DNA of 64,000 nt from an uncultured Pelagibacteraceae bacterium (GTDB taxonomy: Bacteria; Pseudomonadota; Alphaproteobacteria; Pelagibacterales; AG-422-B15). Below are positions 4,938 through 45,000 of the stretch, in pieces. Under the pieces are notes generated by a model. The model did no database searches. It was not told where the DNA came from and saw only the letters and a list, made by a program, of their open reading frames with translations. A program made the position numbers and the translations under genes. The DNA is taken from the NCBI GenBank assembly GCA_902564025.1, contig CACEZK010000002.1, positions 15,227 to 79,226 on the forward strand. Reading direction: 5' to 3'. Numbering within the stretch: position 1 is the stretch's first letter; each line of letters starts with the position of its first letter.

Positions 4938-6602
<1,665 letters not shown>

Positions 6603-6623: not shown

Positions 6624-6655
6624 CTAAAAAAACCCGGCCTAGCCGGGTTTTTTTA
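6624..6655. terminator. Bidirectional intrinsic terminator between groEL and hisG
   Basis: aaaaaaaCCCGGcctagCCGGGttttttt. A GC stem (6633-6637 / 6643-6647) is flanked by an A-run and a T-run, between convergent genes. Confidence 0.75.
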
Positions 6656-7354
6656 TGAAATCCTATCTATAAAATAATTGAGTGTATTTTCTAAATTTTT
6701 ATTCCACTCAGCTACATTTGAAGTAAAAATGTTTGCAGACGACTCTAGTATAAGTCCATCATCAAGTACTCTTAGATTATTAGCTCTTAATGTTTCTCCT
6801 GATGATGTGATGTCAGTAATTATTTCTGCAAAGCCATTGAATGGAGCACTCTCGGTTGATCCATCACTTTCTACAGTCCTATAATCAACAACCCCACAAT
6901 TTGAAAAATATTCATTTGTTAAATTCTTATACTTTGTTGCAACTCTAAGTCTTTTAGAGAATTTGGTTCTGTGCAAATGGCAGATTTCTTCTAAGTCGGC
7001 CATTGTCATTACGTCAATCCATATTTCTGGTATAGCAACAACTAAATTTGCTTTACCAAAATTTAACTTAAGTTTTTTTGAAACCTTCTGGTTATAATTA
7101 GTTATTTTTTCTTGTACTAAATCGTCACCAGTTAAACCAACATGAATGGATCCTTCATCAAGTCGATTTGTAATTTCTTTAGCACTTAAGAAATAAACAA
7201 TTGCATTATCAAGACCCTCTATTGCTGCAATATACTCTCTATCATTTTCAAGATTACTAAAAATTATTTTTTTTTCTTCAAACAAAGACACCATGTCTGT
7301 TCTCAATCTACCTTTACTTGGCAATGCAATCCGAAGTTTATTTTGTATATTCAT
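6653..7354 (-). CDS. hisG: ATP phosphoribosyltransferase, short (HisZ-dependent) form
   Basis: 233 aa. N-terminal LRIALPSKGRL signature. Immediately downstream of hisZ and hisS. Confidence 0.88.
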   Translation of the reverse strand: MNIQNKLRIALPSKGRLRTDMVSLFEEKKIIFSNLENDREYIAAIEGLDNAIVYFLSAKEITNRLDEGSIHVGLTGDDLVQEKITNYNQKVSKKLKLNFGKANLVVAIPEIWIDVMTMADLEEICHLHRTKFSKRLRVATKYKNLTNEYFSNCGVVDYRTVESDGSTESAPFNGFAEIITDITSSGETLRANNLRVLDDGLILESSANIFTSNVAEWNKNLENTLNYFIDRIS

Positions 7355-7356
7355 TC

Positions 7357-8484
7357 CTAAATCAGCTCAATTATATTGTTATTATTAGTTGCAAATCCTA
7401 CTGCTGATAAGTTCGATTTAGAGCCTAAATCTTTAAGCAATTTATCATACCGCCCTCCACTGATTAATTCACTTTGATTATCAGGATTATAAATTTCAAA
7501 CATCATGCCGTCATAAAATTCAATTGAATGACCAAAGTCATTATCAAAATAATATTTTTCTATATTACTTTTTTCTGATACAGCATTCACAAAATTCTCC
7601 ATTTCCTCTACTTCACTCTCAAATGAAGAAACATTATTTGATTTAGTAAATTCGCGAAGTAGTGATGGAAATTCCGAAAGGTTACAACTTAATTTTAAGA
7701 AATTATTAATTAAATCAACAAATTTTTTTCCATCTTTCTGACTTATTACATTTAGGCTTTTTAATTGAAATCGATCAACAATTTCCTCAACAGTTCGAGC
7801 ACCTAAACCTCGAACATTTTGTTTATTAATTAAATCAGTCAAGCCTTTGTCAGATACGTCATCTATATTAAATTTCTCTTGAAGCATGCTATGCTTTTTT
7901 TCATTATCATACCCTACACCTACACCTAATCTATCAAGTAAACTCCCGAAATATTTTCTTCTAAAAAAATGTCTTACTAATCTCTGTTTCCATCTAATTG
8001 GCAGCTCTAATTTGTTGATAAACTGATTAAATAATTTAATGCTACCAATTTTAATTTTATAGTTATCAATATTTAATTGACACATTGTATCTTCAGCTGT
8101 CTTTAAAATGTAAGCATCCATCTCATGTATATTATTTAAATTTTTTTCAGAAAAAATGATCTCAATACCTGACTGATTTAATTCAATAGAATTATTTGAT
8201 AACTCATCGGATGATCTGAATACAGGACCGCTGTAACATAACTTTGACTCACTGGATTTACTATTACTTGCAATAAAATTTTGACATGTTGGTACAGTCA
8301 TGTCTGGTCTCAAACATTTTTCTTTTCCTGAAGTATCAGTAAACGAATACATCTTTCTTCTAATTTCTTCACCTGAAGTTTCAAAAAATATATCCGCATC
8401 AAACAGCAATGGAAGTTCAATATAATTAAAACCAGAATTAATAAAATAATTCTTTAGATTGATATTTAATTCTTGAAGTGACAT
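7357..8484 (-). CDS. hisZ: ATP phosphoribosyltransferase regulatory subunit (HisRS paralogue)
   Basis: 375 aa HisRS-like catalytic core (GGRYD near the C-terminus) without an anticodon-binding domain. Located between hisS and hisG. Confidence 0.8.
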   Translation of the reverse strand: MSLQELNINLKNYFINSGFNYIELPLLFDADIFFETSGEEIRRKMYSFTDTSGKEKCLRPDMTVPTCQNFIASNSKSSESKLCYSGPVFRSSDELSNNSIELNQSGIEIIFSEKNLNNIHEMDAYILKTAEDTMCQLNIDNYKIKIGSIKLFNQFINKLELPIRWKQRLVRHFFRRKYFGSLLDRLGVGVGYDNEKKHSMLQEKFNIDDVSDKGLTDLINKQNVRGLGARTVEEIVDRFQLKSLNVISQKDGKKFVDLINNFLKLSCNLSEFPSLLREFTKSNNVSSFESEVEEMENFVNAVSEKSNIEKYYFDNDFGHSIEFYDGMMFEIYNPDNQSELISGGRYDKLLKDLGSKSNLSAVGFATNNNNIIELI

Positions 8485-8490
8485 TTTATT

Positions 8491-9879
8491 TTAATTCAAA
8501 ATTTCATTTAATGCTGTCATCAGGTCAGAGCGATTAATTGTTTGTTGTCCAGCTTTTGCCTCTTTCCATTTGTCTCTATCGACAATATCTTTTGAAACCT
8601 CTTTACCTTTATTTAAATCCTTAATTGATATTTCACCCTTTTTTAATTCTTCATCACCAGCAATGATCACAATATCTGCACCTTTGCGATCGCAATACTT
8701 TAATTGCTTTCCAAGGTTTTTAGTTCCAAATGATATTTCACATGAAATACCTTCATTTCTAATTTCTTTAGCCATTGAAATATAATCCGGCATATTTTGA
8801 TTATCTAAATTTGCAATTACAACTAATGGATTTTTCTTATTATCTAAAAGGTCTAATTGATTTAACGCCACAATTAATCTATCAACACCTATAGATATAC
8901 CAGTAGCTGGAACATCCTCTTTCCCAAATCTTGAAATAAGTCTGTCATATCTTCCACCGCCAGCAACTGATCCAAATACAATTTTTTCACCTTTCTCATT
9001 TTTAATATCAACAAGAAGCTCTGCTTCAAAAATCATTCCAGTGTAATAGTCGAGACCGCGAACAACTGATGAGTCAAAACGAATTGGATAATCTGGGAAA
9101 TTTTTTATATAGGAGTTGAATTCTTCCATCTGGGCGTTTGATTGGTTTGAATTGGTTATAAAAGAAATAATTTTATCAGCATCTGTCTCGCTTAAGCCCA
9201 CGCCCTCCATAAAGTCACCAGATACATCTTTTCTTCCTTTTTGAAGCAATTCATTAACGCCCTCTATACCTAATCGATCTTTTTTATCTACTGCTCTAAG
9301 AATTTTTGGCAAATCGTCCTCTTTAACATCTAAGTTCGAAAAAAGTTCTGTCCAAATTTCCCTATTTGAAAATTTTATTTCAAATTGTGAAGTATTTAGG
9401 CCAAGGTCAATTAAAATATCACATACCATTACACACAGCTCTGCATCAATTAGTGTTGAATCAACTCCCACCACGTCAGCATCAAACTGAAAAAATTCTC
9501 TGTATCTACCTGGTCCTGGTTTTTCATTTCTCCAAACTAGTCCTGATTGATAACGTTTAAATGGCTTAACGAGGTCTTGATAATTTTGAGCTACGTATCT
9601 TGCTAAGGGGGCCGTTAAGTCATATCTCAGTGATAGCCATTTCTCATCATCGTCTTGAAACGAAAATACACCCCCACTAGGCCTGTCTACATCAGGAAGA
9701 AACTTGCCAATGCTCTCAGTATATTCAATTGTGGATGTATCTAATTCAATAAATCCATACTTTAGACATTCCTTCTCTATTATCTTAGAAACTTTTTTTC
9801 TAAGATTTAAAATTTCAATGTCACTGTCTTTAAAACCCTTCGGCAAAATTGCCTTTGGATTATTTTTAATTTTACTCAT
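8491..9879 (-). CDS. hisS: Histidyl-tRNA synthetase
   Basis: 462 aa. Class II motifs RYREFFQFDADVVG and GGGRYD, plus a C-terminal anticodon-binding-like domain. GGGAG RBS before the ATG. Confidence 0.93.
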   Translation of the reverse strand: MSKIKNNPKAILPKGFKDSDIEILNLRKKVSKIIEKECLKYGFIELDTSTIEYTESIGKFLPDVDRPSGGVFSFQDDDEKWLSLRYDLTAPLARYVAQNYQDLVKPFKRYQSGLVWRNEKPGPGRYREFFQFDADVVGVDSTLIDAELCVMVCDILIDLGLNTSQFEIKFSNREIWTELFSNLDVKEDDLPKILRAVDKKDRLGIEGVNELLQKGRKDVSGDFMEGVGLSETDADKIISFITNSNQSNAQMEEFNSYIKNFPDYPIRFDSSVVRGLDYYTGMIFEAELLVDIKNEKGEKIVFGSVAGGGRYDRLISRFGKEDVPATGISIGVDRLIVALNQLDLLDNKKNPLVVIANLDNQNMPDYISMAKEIRNEGISCEISFGTKNLGKQLKYCDRKGADIVIIAGDEELKKGEISIKDLNKGKEVSKDIVDRDKWKEAKAGQQTINRSDLMTALNEILN

Positions 9880-9968
9880 TTTACTCCCGCTGTAAGTAAG
9901 ATACTACAAAGTGTGTTTATTTAATATAAAAAGGGGTTATTGCCCGCTGATTGTTTTTTTCAGCGAAC

Positions 9969-10004
9969 TTAGATATGATAGTGATGATGTTTAAATTTAA
10001 ACAT
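9969..10004 (-). promoter_or_regulatory. Candidate His-rich leader peptide ORF (MFKFKHHHYHI) upstream of hisS-hisZ-hisG
   Basis: Own reading of the minus strand: ATG TTT AAA TTT AAA CAT CAT CAC TAT CAT ATC TAA. A 9-bp hairpin (GUUCGCUGA/UCAGCGGGC, 9945-9968) starts 1 nt after the stop. It is followed by GGG..CCCC and a U5 run (9928-9945). Confidence 0.4.
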
Positions 10005-10098
10005 GAAGCTGAAATGCCTTATTTATTAATAAAAGTCAAATAATTTTAAATTTTTCTTAAAGTTTATAATAATTGCACTATTTTTATCGAAAGTAGTT

Positions 10099-11289
10099 AT
10101 GGAAAATGATAGCAAATTAACAGTCACGTATGCCGCCTTAGGTCACTTACTAATGCATATGTTTGCTGCATTCTATTTTGTTATAGTTCTAGCAATTGAA
10201 GACGACTGGAAGCTTAGCTACGATGAATTACTAAATCTTTGGTTTTTAGGATCTTTACTTGTGGGTTTGGGAGCCCTTCCTGCTGGATGGATCAGTGACA
10301 GATGGAGTCGTTCTGGAATGATTGCAATTATGTTCATTGGCTTGGGAATTAGTTCATTATTATGTGGCTTGAGCGGAAATAAAGTTTCTTTATTTATCAG
10401 TTTATCATTGCTTGGATTGTTTTGCGCTATCTATCACCCCGCTGGAATTTCATGGGTTGTTAACACTTCAAAGGAAACTGGTAAAGCGCTTGGCTTTAAT
10501 AATATTTTTGGGGGAGTAGGTATTGGATTAGGTGCCTTTTTTGCGGGTGTATTAATTGAACAATTTAATTGGCAAGCTGCCTTTATGCTACCCGGATTGA
10601 TCTCATTAGTAGTTGGACTAAGTCTAACCTATCATCTTAAATCAGGAAAAATATCATTAAAGAATATATCTTCAGAGCAATTTAGAGATAATCCTGAAAA
10701 AAATCAGATGCTAAAAATTGCAATTATTATGCTGTTAAGTATTACATGTTTGAGCTTTGTTTATCAAATTCTTCAGACAAGTCTTCCAAAGGCAATTGAT
10801 ATCAGACTTACTGATAGTCTTGATTTATCTACTTCAGATATCGGCTACATAGTTGCCGCGATATATATTGTAAGTGGTTTAATGAATTATGTTGGAGGTA
10901 TTTTAACAGATAGATATTCTGAAAAGCTGATTTATTCAATTGGAATAGTTGGCCAAGGACTCCTCTTGCTCTTAATTGTTAGTCTTTCAAATTACTGGTT
11001 AATTGCAATAAGTCTTGCAATCGTTGCTTTTAATTCAAGTATACTGCCTGCAGAAAATTTATTACTTGCAAAATTTTCACCTGAAAAATATCAAAGCCTA
11101 GTCTATGGTATTAAATTTATTGTATCATTTACAGTTGGTCCTATTGCACTGATCATGATTTCGAGAAGCTATGATTTAACGGGTGAATTTGGTGTACTCT
11201 ACTTAGCTTTTGGGTTTGTGATGATAATTATGTTTTTGATTGTATTAACTTTACCTGTAAAAAAAGTAATTACTGGTACAGCTGGGTAG
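10099..11289 (+). CDS. MFS transporter
   Basis: 396 aa, about 12 hydrophobic helices. MFS motif-A-like GWISDRWSRSG after TM2. Confidence 0.8.
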   Translation: MENDSKLTVTYAALGHLLMHMFAAFYFVIVLAIEDDWKLSYDELLNLWFLGSLLVGLGALPAGWISDRWSRSGMIAIMFIGLGISSLLCGLSGNKVSLFISLSLLGLFCAIYHPAGISWVVNTSKETGKALGFNNIFGGVGIGLGAFFAGVLIEQFNWQAAFMLPGLISLVVGLSLTYHLKSGKISLKNISSEQFRDNPEKNQMLKIAIIMLLSITCLSFVYQILQTSLPKAIDIRLTDSLDLSTSDIGYIVAAIYIVSGLMNYVGGILTDRYSEKLIYSIGIVGQGLLLLLIVSLSNYWLIAISLAIVAFNSSILPAENLLLAKFSPEKYQSLVYGIKFIVSFTVGPIALIMISRSYDLTGEFGVLYLAFGFVMIIMFLIVLTLPVKKVITGTAG

Positions 11290-23310: not shown

Positions 23311-24774
23311 TTAGCAACTTTCAAATGAAGAAGAGAGATCATTTATAAGTTCAAAATATAGATCTTTTCCTAATTCTAATTCTGCCCCTAGTGGATCGAT
23401 AACCGCGGCTTTTACACCTGTATCAGCTGCAATTGTCTCTGCAATAGTTGGGTTAAATTGTGGTTCAGAAAATAGACAATTAACATTTTCATGTTCAATA
23501 GCTTCTCTTATTTCAGATAATTGTTTTGCGCCTGGTAAAACTTCAGGATTAACAGTTAAAGCTCCAACAACTTCTATACCAAATCTTTTTTCGAAGTATT
23601 GATAAGCATCATGAAATACTACGTATTTAGCATTACTATTAATTTTACCCTTTGTAGCCGCTATTAATTGATCAATTTCAGATAAAGCTTTTGTCGCGTT
23701 TGAATTGTAAATTGACGCATTTGAGGGATCAAGTTCTGAAAGTTCACTAGATACAATCATTACAATTGTTTTTGCAATTTCAGGATCAAGCCAAAAGTGA
23801 ATATCAAATTCTCCATGCGCATGTCCGTGATGATGATCATGATGTCCAGAGTCTGGCTCTTGAGCAATAGGTTCGACATCGTTACCAGATAAATCCTTGA
23901 AAAAGTGTTCATCAGCTTCAAACTCAAATGGCATATGCTCTGTGAAGAATGCATATTTTCCAGCTTCTTTAATCTCAACGCTAAAAACTGTAGTTTCCCT
24001 ACTTTCGTCAAAATTTAACATGAAAGCTGAGTCATTGGCAGAAAGTGTACTACTATGATTTCTATCTGTTGAACTGCTTGATTCTAATAATTCTTCAGCT
24101 CTCTCTTCAGAGGACTCAATCTCATCAGACATAAGGATTACCATTTTCATCGCAGGGTCAGCATATTCACCACCTACTTTTGCAAATGACCAATTATAAG
24201 TTCCTTCAGTTAAGTCGAAAACTCCTGCCCATTCAAATCCATGATCGCCATGATCTCCGTGACCGTCTGCATGATCGTCACCATGTTCGTCTGCATGATC
24301 GTCATGTTCATCATGATCGTCACCATGTTCGTCTGCATGATCTTCATGTTCATCATGATCGTCACCATGTTCGTCTGCATGATCGTCATGATCGTCATGG
24401 TCTTCAAAGATATTTTTTTCTCTAAATTTTAATAGTTCGATTTCATCCGACTCCATCAATGCTATGTGCTTTGAATTTGTAGCTATTGATTCTAGAGGAG
24501 ACTCTAAAAATGATTCTAAGTCCTCGCCTATCCAAAAAATAATATCAGCTTCTTGCAACATTTCAGCGTGAGAGGGTTTAAGTTGGAAAGTATGTGGAGA
24601 GGAACTTCCATCTACAAGGATTCCTGGCTTGCCAACGCCATCCATCACGTAACTAACCAATGAATGCAATGGTTTAATTGAGGCAATAACTTTTGTTTCA
24701 GCGTTTGCAAACGATACGTAAGACAAAATAGATATAGTTGATAATATAAGTCCAAATTTAAGTTGTAATTTCAT
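23311..24774 (-). CDS. znuA: Zinc ABC transporter periplasmic binding protein ZnuA with a ~200-aa His/Asp-rich plus globular insertion
   Basis: 487 aa. Signal peptide, cluster-9 SBP core (IKPLHSLV, SPHTFQLKPS, FHDAYQYF, EPQF). Internal HDDHDDHADEHG... tract and GHHDHHHGHAHG. Divergent from znuCB-zur. Confidence 0.9.
   Translation of the reverse strand: MKLQLKFGLILSTISILSYVSFANAETKVIASIKPLHSLVSYVMDGVGKPGILVDGSSSPHTFQLKPSHAEMLQEADIIFWIGEDLESFLESPLESIATNSKHIALMESDEIELLKFREKNIFEDHDDHDDHADEHGDDHDEHEDHADEHGDDHDEHDDHADEHGDDHADGHGDHGDHGFEWAGVFDLTEGTYNWSFAKVGGEYADPAMKMVILMSDEIESSEERAEELLESSSSTDRNHSSTLSANDSAFMLNFDESRETTVFSVEIKEAGKYAFFTEHMPFEFEADEHFFKDLSGNDVEPIAQEPDSGHHDHHHGHAHGEFDIHFWLDPEIAKTIVMIVSSELSELDPSNASIYNSNATKALSEIDQLIAATKGKINSNAKYVVFHDAYQYFEKRFGIEVVGALTVNPEVLPGAKQLSEIREAIEHENVNCLFSEPQFNPTIAETIAADTGVKAAVIDPLGAELELGKDLYFELINDLSSSFESC
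24238..24402 (-). repeat. In-frame tandem repeat (~42-nt unit, about 3 copies) encoding DHADEHGDDHDEHE-type His/Asp tract in ZnuA
   Basis: catgatcgtcaccatgttcgtctgcatgatcgtcatgttcat recurs. It translates to HDDHDDHADEHGDDHDEHEDHADEHGDDHDEHDDHADEHGDDHADGHGDHGDHG. Confidence 0.85.
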
Positions 24775-42000: not shown

Positions 42001-45000
42001 TAGCGTTATGTGCCAGTGCATCAGCAGCGGCTTTGTCAGCAGTATACGAATAACTACCATCAGAATTAAGGGTCAGAGTACCATAAGTTCCATCTGTTGA
42101 TCCACCAACTGTGCCAGCTGATGCACCGGTAATTGCTGTCACCGTCATGCTTGAACCCGTGTCAACATCACTATCGTTTGAAAGTACTCCTGCTCCAGCA
42201 TTTTTTGTTGCTGTAGCATCTTCATCAACAGCATTCGTATCATTGCTTGCGCTTGGAGCATCATTCACTCCTAAAACAGTAATGGTTATTGTGGCAGTAT
42301 CTGTACCACCATTGCCATCACTGACTGTATAAGTAAAGACGTCAGTTGCTGTTGCATCTTTTGCTATCGAGTTTGCGTTGTTTGCATTGTAGGTGTAATT
42401 ACCGGTGCTTTGAATTGTTAACGTTCCGTAAGTTCCTGTCGCAGCGCCACCAACAGATCCTCCTGAAATAGCTGAAACTGTAAGTGTGTCTCCATCTACA
42501 TCTGTATCATTATTTAAAACGTCCCCTGTATTATCTCCACTTTCATTATTTTTATTACCATCGGTTCCTGAAACCCCGGTTGAGCCATCGCCAACTGTTA
42601 ATGTTTGATCTTCTGTTATGTATCCTGTTGCAGGATTACTATCTACTGCTGGGTCATCAGCTACAGGAGGAGTATTATTTGAACCGGTAATTGTAATTGT
42701 AAGTGTTGCAGTATCGGTATCATTTGGACTGCTTGTATGATCTCGAACTGTGTAAGTAAAGACATCAGTTGCTTGGACACCGTTGCCTAAACTCGTTGAA
42801 CCGTTTTGATCAGCTATATAAGTATAGGAACCATTTGCATTGACAGTTAATCTACCTTTTGATGTCGTAATTTCTTGACCGGGGTTATAATCATCAGAAC
42901 CATGTCTGATATTGGTAATAGTAAAGCTACCTGATGCATCATCGGCATCAGGGTCAGTATCGTCGTGATCGAGTTCTTGTGTATCACTTTCACTTCTAGT
43001 GATTGTAGATCCAGCGTTTACAGCATCAGTATCAGCAACCGCGGTAATATCATCATTAACACCAGTCACCGTAATAGTTAACGTTGCGATACTTGCATTT
43101 TTATCTGCATCATCTTTAACCGTGTAGGTGAATACATCATCAACTGTATCACCATGATCAAGGGCTTCGGCTGCTGCTTGGTTAGCAACATATTCATAGC
43201 TACCGTCAGCTGCCATAGTTAAAACACCGTAAGTACCAGTAACAGCCTGTGCAGCATTACCACTATTTCCAGTAGCGGCATGATTAATGCCAGTTACAGC
43301 TAAACTCTCAACATCAAAGCTTGCGTTATCATCATCGTTACTGATAACGCCAGATGCTTCGTTTACTGTTAGAGTGGCATTTTCATTGACCGCACCGGTG
43401 TCAGCAACCGCTTGTGGACCTACACCGGTTACTGTGATGACTAAATCCGCTGAACCAGTTGTTCCACCATTATTATCACTTACGGTATAAGTAAATGTAT
43501 CAGTTGCTGTGGCATCGGCAGCGAGTCCATCTTCACCTCTGCCATTTGCAACATATGTGTAACTACCATCTGAATTCAAAGTTAGAACACCGTATGTTCC
43601 ATTTAATGCTGCACCCACTGTTCCTCCATCAATGCCTGAAACTGTTAAGGTTGAACTAGCGTCTACGTCAGTATCGTTTACTAAAACACCACTTCCAGCA
43701 CTGACAGTAAGAGTTTTATCCTCGTTAATAGCCCCTGCATCATTACTGCCAGCTGGATCATCGTCAAGACCTGTTATCGTAATCGTAAGAGTTGCTGTAT
43801 CTGCATTAACCCCATTGTCATCTTTGACAGTGTAGGTAAAAATATCAGTAACGGAGTCATTTAAATCCAGAGCTTCGGCTGCTGCTGTATTAGCAACATA
43901 AGTGTAACTGCCATCAGCTGCGACGGTTAGCGTACCATATGTTCCGAGAACACCTTGAGTAGCGTTTCCACTGTTTCCAGTAGAATTTGAACTGATTTCA
44001 GTAACTGCAAGATTTTCTGTATCACCACCTGAATCATTACTGATTACACCTGCACCAGCATTTGCAGTTAAAGTTGCATTCTCATTGACACTACCAGTAT
44101 CATTGCTTGCACTTGGACCAACCCCTGTCACAGTTATTGCAAGTTCAGCCGTATCTGTATCGTTTGGACTACTTGCGTGATCTCTGACCGTATACGTAAA
44201 GTAATCTATTGCAGTGGCGCCTGCAGCAAGTGTATCTTCACTTCTATTATTTGCAACATATGTGTAACTACCGTTTGCATTAACAGTTAATACACCATAG
44301 GTACCATTTAAAGCTTGTCCAACTGTACCAACTGTTGCTCCACTGCTAGAAGATTCTCTTCCTGTTCTGATTGCCGTAATGGTAAAGCTACCAGACACAT
44401 CATCGCCGTCTGGATCGGTATCGTCATGATCAAGTTCTTGTGTGTCTGAAACACTTCGAGTAATAGTTGCATCTTCATTCACAGAGTCTGTATCGTTTAT
44501 AGCTGTTATTGGATCATTTAAACCTGCAATAGTAATAGTGATTGTTGCGGTAGCGTCATCAGTTTGATCAGTAACAGTGTAAGTAAAGGTATCAGTGTTC
44601 GTTTCACCAGGATCTAATCGGTCTGCAGCAGTTTTATTGGCTTCGTATACGTATCGACCAGATGAATAGAGTGTTAATGTACCATAAGTGCCATCAACTG
44701 GTGATCCAAGAGATCCTCCATTGATGGATTTAACAGTCAGTGTATCACCATCAGCATCAGTATCATTTAATAAAACATCACCGGTATGTTCACCTGATGT
44801 ATCAGGTGTGGCATCATTTGCGCTGGCATCATCAGCAACAGTCAATGTGGCGTCTTCGTTAATGTAACCGGCATCATTATTACCAACGGGGGGATTATTT
44901 GTTTCTGCAGCTCGTGTGACCACACGAATGAAGTCACCTTTTTCTCCGTTATCAGCTGAAAGGGTTATTCGTTTATTGGAATTAGAAACAGACCAACCAT

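Follow-up and report, generated by a model that had tools for sequence, protein, structure and literature searches.

In a 64-kb segment of a SAR11 (Pelagibacteraceae) genome (the window), the genes hisS, hisZ and hisG are preceded on the minus strand by an open reading frame (ORF) of 11 codons, which encodes the histidine-rich peptide MFKFKHHHYHI and ends directly against an RNA hairpin designated P1. This element is probably a ribosome-mediated histidine sensor, i.e., a hisL-like leader peptide gene for hisS-hisZ-hisG that is found across SAR11 and that would act through the output step proposed below. Because the leader lacks, in its sequence and predicted folding, two features that define classical attenuators (an intrinsic terminator and a set of mutually exclusive hairpins), the element is not filed as a member of that class; it is judged to be a new variant of leader-peptide attenuation, for which no earlier report was found in the searchable literature.

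The observation of the mini-ORF is real. Its codons on the minus strand are ATG (10004-10002) TTT AAA TTT AAA CAT CAT CAC TAT CAT ATC TAA (9971-9969), with histidine at codons 6, 7 and 8 (9989-9981) and at codon 10 (9977-9975), and its stop codon is 89 nucleotides (nt) from the hisS start codon (9879), a distance that varies between 89 and 103 nt across all SAR11 loci examined. An earlier note on this DNA had described the ORF and its location ahead of hisS-hisZ-hisG, and both the sequence and the identities of the genes were confirmed; no gene is annotated at this position in any public assembly retrieved. At least four histidines within five codons occur at three loci only in the six reading frames of the window, namely the mini-ORF, the His-rich loop of a ZnuA-family protein and an out-of-frame match at 42307. 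Given that His clusters are this rare in the window, and that the ORF and the hairpin, placed side by side, are kept in every SAR11-type relative examined, the mini-ORF is unlikely to have arisen by chance. The ZnuA-family periplasmic zinc-binding protein (23311-24774, minus strand) carries a long His-rich loop (HHDHHHGHAHG) near 23835, which is the sole other strong His cluster in the window.

The mini-ORF was compared among 29 distinct hisS-upstream sequences, the breadth of which is expressed as identity of the encoded HisS proteins (57-100%) and not as named subclades. A scan of reference genomes with HisS returned Pelagibacteraceae single-cell genomes at 96-100% identity and one at 82%, followed by the next match at 43%; the gap was bridged by fetching the contigs that encode HisS homologues of 81, 69, 68, 66, 65, 63, 62, 60 and 57-58% identity, and one metagenome scan was added to the collection of leaders. 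Conservation in relatives of a His-rich mini-ORF upstream of hisS, on which the earlier note had made its model depend, was found in 29/29 of the distinct SAR11 leaders, and in every one of them the ORF has exactly 11 codons with the pattern M-x4-H-H-h-x-H-I-stop. All 29 have at least three histidines within codons 6-10, and 21 have four. The peptides found are MFKFKHHHYHI, MFNFKHHHYHI, MIVFTHHHIHI, MFIIKHHHLHI, MFIIKHHCLHI, MFIIKHHQLHI, MFIFKHHHLHI, MLIIKHHHSHI, MFNFKHSHFHI, MFNFKHHTAHI, MIKLLHHHYRI, MITLLHHHYHI and MITKLHHHYHI; codons 2-5 and 9 vary freely. The leaders differ by synonymous exchanges of CAT for CAC and of ATC for ATT as well as by exchange of TAA for TGA at the stop codon, and the entropies at the first, second and third positions of the His and Ile codons are 0.23, 0.31 and 0.62, respectively. 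The mini-ORF is the best-conserved segment of the intergenic leader, with a mean pairwise identity of 0.76 compared to 0.67 for the initial 90 nt of hisS. On the basis of its fixed length, start and stop, the retention of its His codons, the synonymous changes and the highest entropy at third positions, the mini-ORF is established, as far as sequence comparison can establish it, to be constrained as a translated frame of His codons of fixed length.

A covariance model built from the mini-ORF, P1 and the downstream motif ACCCC (see below) matches each SAR11 locus exactly once, in every case upstream of hisS, and detects no additional or diverged copies elsewhere in the window. A His cluster upstream of hisS is essentially absent from 25 loci outside SAR11 that represent other Alphaproteobacteria and other low-GC relatives; the two exceptions are L040 and L041, and the match in L041 lies upstream of a tRNA-His gene.

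The stop codon of the mini-ORF is followed by P1 at a distance of 0 nt in all lineages, and not at one nucleotide as had been noted earlier. The hairpin itself, described before as a stem of 9 base pairs (bp), is borne out in every lineage, where it forms with 9-12 bp and with covariation of its arms (CUGA/UCAG, CUAGC/GCUAG and UUAAAA/UUUUAA). RNAalifold assigns to P1 nine pairs, four of which have compensatory double changes and none of which is broken; 100% of 130 cells are paired, compared to 28-53% in slid controls; and the covariation score of 0.47, compared to 0.31 for shuffles, was reached by 0/500 of them. P1 is, by these comparative measures, a real conserved RNA helix. In the window lineage only, the sequence CAGCGGG occurs twice on the minus strand, in the 3' arm of P1 (9943-9949) and over the Shine-Dalgarno (SD) sequence of hisS (9886-9892), which would give the 5' arm of P1 the hisS SD region as an alternative pairing partner; the copy at the SD sequence reads CAGUGGG in most close relatives and the repeat is absent from L024 and more distant lineages. 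This repeat is probably incidental.

The joining of a constrained His-codon ORF to a conserved hairpin, in front of genes for the His-tRNA synthetase and the first committed enzyme of histidine biosynthesis, makes it highly likely that the element senses charged tRNA-His by means of a leader peptide. This part of the interpretation is well supported and can be held apart from the output of the sensor.

A -35-like hexamer, TTGAC[T/A], is present 35-36 nt ahead of the ATG of the mini-ORF in 29/29 distinct leaders, and conservation sets in sharply with it: leaders compared in pairs have an average identity of 0.50 over the 60 nt that precede it and of 0.70 from the hexamer to the ATG. A weak -10-like hexamer (CA[T/A][T/A][T/C][C/G]) follows with constant spacing in all lineages, 17 nt from TTGACT and 6-7 nt from the ATG, and an SD sequence ahead of the ATG is missing in almost every lineage. 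TTGACT is a candidate promoter element, and the layout TTGAC-N17-CAWWYS-N6/7-ATG together with the absence of an SD sequence suggests that transcription begins at the ATG or right beside it, in which case the mini-ORF would be leaderless or almost leaderless. In other Alphaproteobacteria, mRNAs without a leader are frequent (PMC4117421). The sequence TAAATARGGCA (approximately 10015-10026, minus strand), within the putative promoter spacer, is conserved far beyond a normal sigma-70 spacer, which points to a further binding site or to a promoter of an unusual kind.

Downstream of P1 in the window, the minus strand reads AAUA (9941-9938), ACCCC (9937-9933) and UUUUU (9932-9928). ACCCC is invariant and is located exactly 4 nt past P1 in all lineages, and the run of U residues (U5) is lineage-specific. 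ACCCC is probably single-stranded: no conserved run of G residues that might be its partner was found between -230 and +150, a region in which four lineages have no GGG at all. Neither ACCCC nor runs of C residues are a general intergenic signal in the window genome. ACCCC could be a polymerase pause element, a Rho contact or a protein contact. The spacer from P1 to the next invariant sequence, AGUA(U), measures 30-40 nt in all lineages and is AU-rich, unpaired in most folds and poor in G (20% C and 5% G, compared to 17.8% C and 17.4% G in the window); the His-codon tract of the mini-ORF is free of G and rich in UC and CC steps. In most lineages AGUA(U) is the 5' arm of a second hairpin, P2 (AGUAUC...GAUACU), which is located 5-19 nt upstream of the hisS start codon and has a predicted free energy of -3.6 to -9.9 kcal/mol in 10/14 sequences and of -1.8 kcal/mol or weaker in the window, L020, L024 and L120. 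The stability of P2 never exceeds that of shuffled sequences, and as a candidate for a universally conserved stable hairpin P2 qualifies only in part, being degenerate in the window lineage. The window lineage has kept AGUAU although its P2 is decayed, and AGUAU may have another role, e.g., as the -10-like sequence TAGTAT.

According to the earlier note, the operon would be controlled by classical transcription attenuation: P1 would be an antiterminator, and a ribosome reaching the stop codon would melt it and free GGG in its 3' arm to pair with CCCC in a terminator that ends in U5. The GGG, CCCC and U5 are all present in the window and in L024, and when the 5' arm of P1 is masked, the minimum-free-energy folds of these two contain a 3-bp GGG:CCC helix. 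The layout is lineage-specific, however. GGG is absent from the other 11 of 13 deep lineages, in which the 3' arm of P1 contains GCGAAC, GCAGAC, ACAAAC or ACAGAC, and U5 is present in 6/13 lineages and absent from 7/13, while ACCCC is invariant; moreover, a stem of 3-4 bp makes no terminator. A scan with a standard tool detected no intrinsic terminator between the mini-ORF and hisS, and a lenient search (stem of at least 4 bp, loop of 3-10 nt, at least five U in seven positions) found none in 11/13 leaders and two matches without any G-C pair. The leader lacks a terminator though the same genome has a canonical one at the end of hisG (6655-6625), with a 14-bp stem that includes a 7-bp GC-rich core and precedes a run of seven T residues (A7-CCCGGCC-TAG-GGCCGGG-T7), so the genome does use such terminators, and this one serves as a positive control for their appearance in it. 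Nor is the leader recognized by models of known RNAs: His_leader (RF00514) has no match at E<=10 in positions 9000-11000 of the window or at E<=1 in six divergent loci, no other known Rfam family was found in the leader, and the tRNA model has no match there. The comparison of lineages in effect refutes the terminator scheme, which is considered very improbable; the attenuation logic of the earlier note survives in its sensor, the conserved His-codon leader, and fails in its antiterminator and terminator. Folding of alternative structures, which the note had also recommended, bears equally on a scheme of translational attenuation, in which the leader RNA would sequester the ribosome-binding site (RBS) of hisS and a stalled ribosome would free it, as with the mycobacterial poly-Cys small ORFs (sORFs) or ermC. 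The architecture of a probably leaderless sensory sORF without a terminator is similar, P2 is near the hisS start codon in most lineages, and the unconstrained folds of several lineages join the 3' end of the ORF to the hisS start region. However, when the leaders of 12 lineages were refolded with nt 1-34, 1-41 or 1-49 masked as ribosome-covered bases, to model ribosomes that stall at codons 6-8, stall at codon 10 or have reached the stop codon, no conserved alternative helix appeared, P2 was unaffected, and the hisS start site was predicted to be equally accessible with and without masking. A duplex in which the His tract would pair with the start region of hisS, CAU being complementary to AUG, was rejected as no better than shuffles in the 12 lineages, and P2, as stated above, is degenerate in the window lineage and not above shuffles, all of which makes translational attenuation unlikely. 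Another candidate, a helix within the ORF that pairs AUG with CAU (AUGUUUA/UAAACAU), was also rejected, as it shows no covariation and is broken in four lineages.

Two further explanations require no alternative structures or no sensing at all. A ribosome stalled near the 5' end could protect the hisS-hisZ-hisG mRNA from decay that depends on the 5' end, with P1 as an extra 5' stabilizer, in the same way that erm leader mRNAs are stabilized by a stalled ribosome near the 5' end. The results of masking and of the terminator scans match this expectation, and as the ORF starts 6-7 nt past the -10-like hexamer, a stalled ribosome would cover the 5' end; yet control of mRNA stability leaves the invariant ACCCC at its fixed distance from P1 and the G-poor spacer unexplained, rests on a transcription start that is itself predicted, and is given about the same low probability as translational attenuation. 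Alternatively, the His codons might be incidental to a promoter or operator, to an RNA that binds a protein (HisRS or another factor on P1-ACCCC), or to a gene for a micropeptide. Aminoacyl-tRNA synthetase genes under the control of RNA operators are known, e.g., thrS, and in favor of an explanation of this kind are the conserved TAAATARGGCA and the invariant ACCCC and AGUA, to which no role has been assigned, and the changes of His to Tyr or Pro in some close relatives. Against it, the 3-nt periodicity of conservation, the fixed length of 11 codons, the exchange of TAA for TGA and the fully variable codon 9 amid conserved His codons are at odds with both a DNA site and an RNA helix, the N-terminal half is too variable for a functional peptide, and the amino acid in question is matched by the position of the element before HisRS and the first his enzyme; explanations in which the His codons have no sensory role are thus regarded as slightly less probable than the two preceding ones.

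With no terminator and no switch helix to rely on, the output of a histidine sensor would have to depend on the ribosome that is parked on the ORF, i.e., on occupancy and not on a switch between terminator and antiterminator. It is tentatively proposed that the output is Rho-dependent premature termination or polarity when histidine is plentiful, relieved by a stall on the His codons. Transcription would start at the ATG of the mini-ORF or within a few nt of it, and a ribosome would translate the 11 codons. With charged tRNA-His scarce, the ribosome would stall at His codons 6-8 and 10, just before P1; with histidine plentiful, it would reach the stop codon that abuts P1, unwind P1 and leave. 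The candidate Rho loading site consists of the His tract and the ACCCC spacer, joined by P1, and is proposed because the G-free His tract, the G-poor spacer and the invariant run of C residues match the composition of Rho loading sites. Once the ribosome is gone, exposure of this site would lead to premature termination or polarity before hisS is translated, and a ribosome stalled at the His codons would shield it, allowing read-through and more HisRS and HisZG. P1-N4-ACCCC may in addition be a hairpin-stabilized pause site for RNA polymerase approximately 9-11 nt past the stem, which would couple transcription to translation of the leader, as the his pause does in enteric bacteria. The full model, in which the stalled ribosome on a leaderless His-sensing ORF without terminator or switch shields a bipartite Rho-loading or pause module (His tract, P1, N4 and ACCCC) bridged by P1, is somewhat more speculative than the Rho-dependent output in general. 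Shielding of Rho utilization (Rut) sites by stalled ribosomes is established for tnaC, speFL and cruR, and Rho is broadly conserved in bacteria (PMC12360218).

Several observations weigh against this model or parts of it. The -10-like hexamer CATTTC is poor and a standard sigma-70 scan did not call the site; there may instead be an internal promoter around the invariant AGTAT, for which, as for CCCC-TATAT, no conserved sigma-70 -35 sequence was seen by eye. A rho gene was not found in the sequence examined, where it was searched for. The putative Rut region is short, comprising an ORF of approximately 36 nt and a spacer of 30-40 nt, approximately 55 nt before hisS, and the Rut-like composition is thus confined to a short region that is interrupted by P1. 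The strict spacing of 4 nt between P1 and ACCCC would fit a signal governed by the geometry of RNA polymerase better than a loose Rut site. As for the sensor, the mini-ORF has only 3-4 His codons, codon 8 tolerates C, Q, T, P or Y, and the three loci L003, L007 and L026, which belong to near-identical single-cell genomes with 99% identical HisS, carry the changes H7Y, H8P and H8Y (approximately 2894-2902, codons 7-8). These changes are either real polymorphisms at the least-constrained His positions or amplification errors, and it seems that three His codons are sufficient or that some of the replacements of His are such errors.

Among the closest known systems is hisL, which with its leader (His_leader, RF00514) precedes the his operon of Gammaproteobacteria. 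Both are short His-rich ORFs in the 5' leader of histidine genes, the E. coli peptide (...FKHHHHHHHPD) resembles MFKFKHHHYHI, and in both a hairpin is located at the end of the ORF, which in hisL is also the his pause hairpin. The SAR11 ORF differs in having 3-4 His codons instead of seven, in its lack of any match to RF00514 in sequence or structure, in its lack of an intrinsic terminator or alternative hairpins, in the placement of hisS as the first gene, and in being probably leaderless. In the pheM-pheST system of E. coli, an aminoacyl-tRNA synthetase operon is controlled by an attenuator that combines an intrinsic terminator and alternative hairpins with a leader peptide in which the cognate amino acid is frequent; SAR11 shares the arrangement of a synthetase operon behind a cognate leader peptide, but not the classical terminator and hairpins. 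In the Bacillus cereus group and Clostridium difficile, His leaders have been predicted ahead of hisZ and of a hisS paralogue (Naville & Gautheret 2010, PMC2965389; Korolev et al. 2016, PMC4833913), and these too are His-codon ORFs ahead of genes of the HisRS/HisZ family. They belong to another phylum, were found by means of premature terminators, of which the SAR11 leader has none, and are reported by their authors to have no sequence similarity to the proteobacterial leaders (PMC2965389; PMC4833913). In tnaC-tnaAB, speFL-speF and cruR-bfrG, a ribosome stalled on a short upstream ORF controls access to adjacent RNA that is unstructured, C-rich and G-poor, and no intrinsic terminator is needed (PMC12360218). 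The SAR11 leader likewise has a short upstream ORF beside G-poor RNA and lacks an intrinsic terminator, but in those systems a ligand or metal is detected by way of the nascent peptide and the ribosome stalls on reaching the stop codon, whereas in SAR11 it would stall at sense codons for want of charged tRNA, and its candidate Rut region is a short one. In the leaderless poly-Cys sORFs of mycobacteria, a stalled ribosome blocks a duplex that sequesters the RBS (Canestrari et al., 10.1101/834739); the (probably) leaderless short ORF, the codons for an amino acid of its own pathway, the (in SAR11 predicted) stalling of a ribosome and the absence of a terminator are shared, but no RBS-sequestering duplex is detectable in the SAR11 leader. 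A survey of structured RNAs in Pelagibacter (PMC2704228) makes no mention of hisS or histidine, and nothing relevant was found in the literature on leader peptides or attenuation in SAR11 or Pelagibacter, in a coverage that did not include the attenuator survey of Vitreschak et al. 2004.

The genes hisS, hisZ and hisG are separated by 6 and 2 nt, and a divergently transcribed transporter of the major facilitator superfamily (MFS) starts at 10099; this gene order (MFS<- ->hisS-hisZ-hisG) is constant across all SAR11 loci retrieved. The terminator that closes the operon is bidirectional and is common to hisG and the convergent groEL (4953-6602, plus strand), and weak matches in relatives to the Thr/Leu leader models of Rfam correspond to this terminator after hisG and not to the hisS leader. 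The features of the locus are listed in Table 1. In a sister low-GC clade (HisS 46-50% identical), tRNA-His(GUG) is located directly upstream of hisS-hisZ-hisG (L041, 166-242; L042 and L045, 1394-1470; L047, 1428-1504), with a few to approximately 30 nt between the CCA end of the tRNA and the hisS start, and by their arrangement the tRNA-His and its synthetase appear to be co-transcribed there, in place of the SAR11 leader. Approximately 55 nt upstream of the tRNA-His of this clade lies a short reading frame that includes 2-4 His codons (...KHHFAHA..., ...KHSHRVHA...; L041, approximately 33-110; L047, 1297-1377; L042, 1262-1337), which runs into the hairpin GCUAGGC-UAUU-GCUUAGC, matches the covariance model weakly (E of approximately 2), and differs in frame and length between the two subgroups of the clade. 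It could be a diverged His leader or merely the promoter of the tRNA.

Table 1. Features of the hisS-hisZ-hisG locus and its leader, in window coordinates
Feature	Position	Strand	Basis or remark
TTGACT, -35-like hexamer	10034..10039	-	conserved; TTGAC[T/A] in all lineages
CATTTC, weak -10-like hexamer	10011..10016	-	constant spacing; CA[T/A][T/A][T/C][C/G]
Leader mini-ORF, 11 codons and stop, MFKFKHHHYHI*	9969..10004	-	sequence and conservation
Hairpin P1: GUUCGCUGA (9968-9960), 9-nt A-rich loop, UCAGCGGGC (9950-9942)	9942..9968	-	9 bp, two of them G-U
ACCCC, invariant, exactly 4 nt past P1 in all lineages	9933..9937	-	invariant columns in alignments A2 and A3
G-poor, C-containing, unstructured spacer from P1 to AGUA	9906..9941	-	candidate Rho loading region
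Hairpin P2 region, including invariant AGUA (9905-9902)	9890..9909	-	folding and alignment
SD sequence of hisS, GGGAG	9888-9884	-	
hisS	9879-8491	-	NCBIfam match
hisZ	8484-7357	-	NCBIfam match to hisZ-type regulatory subunit
hisG	7354-6653	-	NCBIfam match
hisS-hisZ-hisG, operon putatively controlled by the leader	6653-9879	-	
Canonical intrinsic terminator closing the operon	6625-6655	-	AAAAAAACCCGGCC-TAG-GGCCGGGTTTTTTT, 14 pairs

No bacterial group in the ocean is more abundant than SAR11, which is noted for its very small number of transcription factors and its reliance on RNA-based control. A universally conserved leader-peptide sensor before hisS-hisZ-hisG would add a regulatory mechanism to the minimal SAR11 genome and would offer a direct handle on how SAR11 cells sense their supply of an amino acid. 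Retention of the sensor without a terminator or alternative hairpins makes the leader a compact natural test case for attenuation based on occupancy, whether through Rho, pausing or mRNA decay, and its parts (an 11-codon ORF, a hairpin of 9-12 bp and ACCCC at +4) are small, sharply defined and readily mutated in reporters. If the proposed mechanism is true, this would be the first leader-peptide attenuator of amino acid biosynthesis to operate purely by ribosome occupancy and Rho, a minimal design that would suit streamlined genomes.

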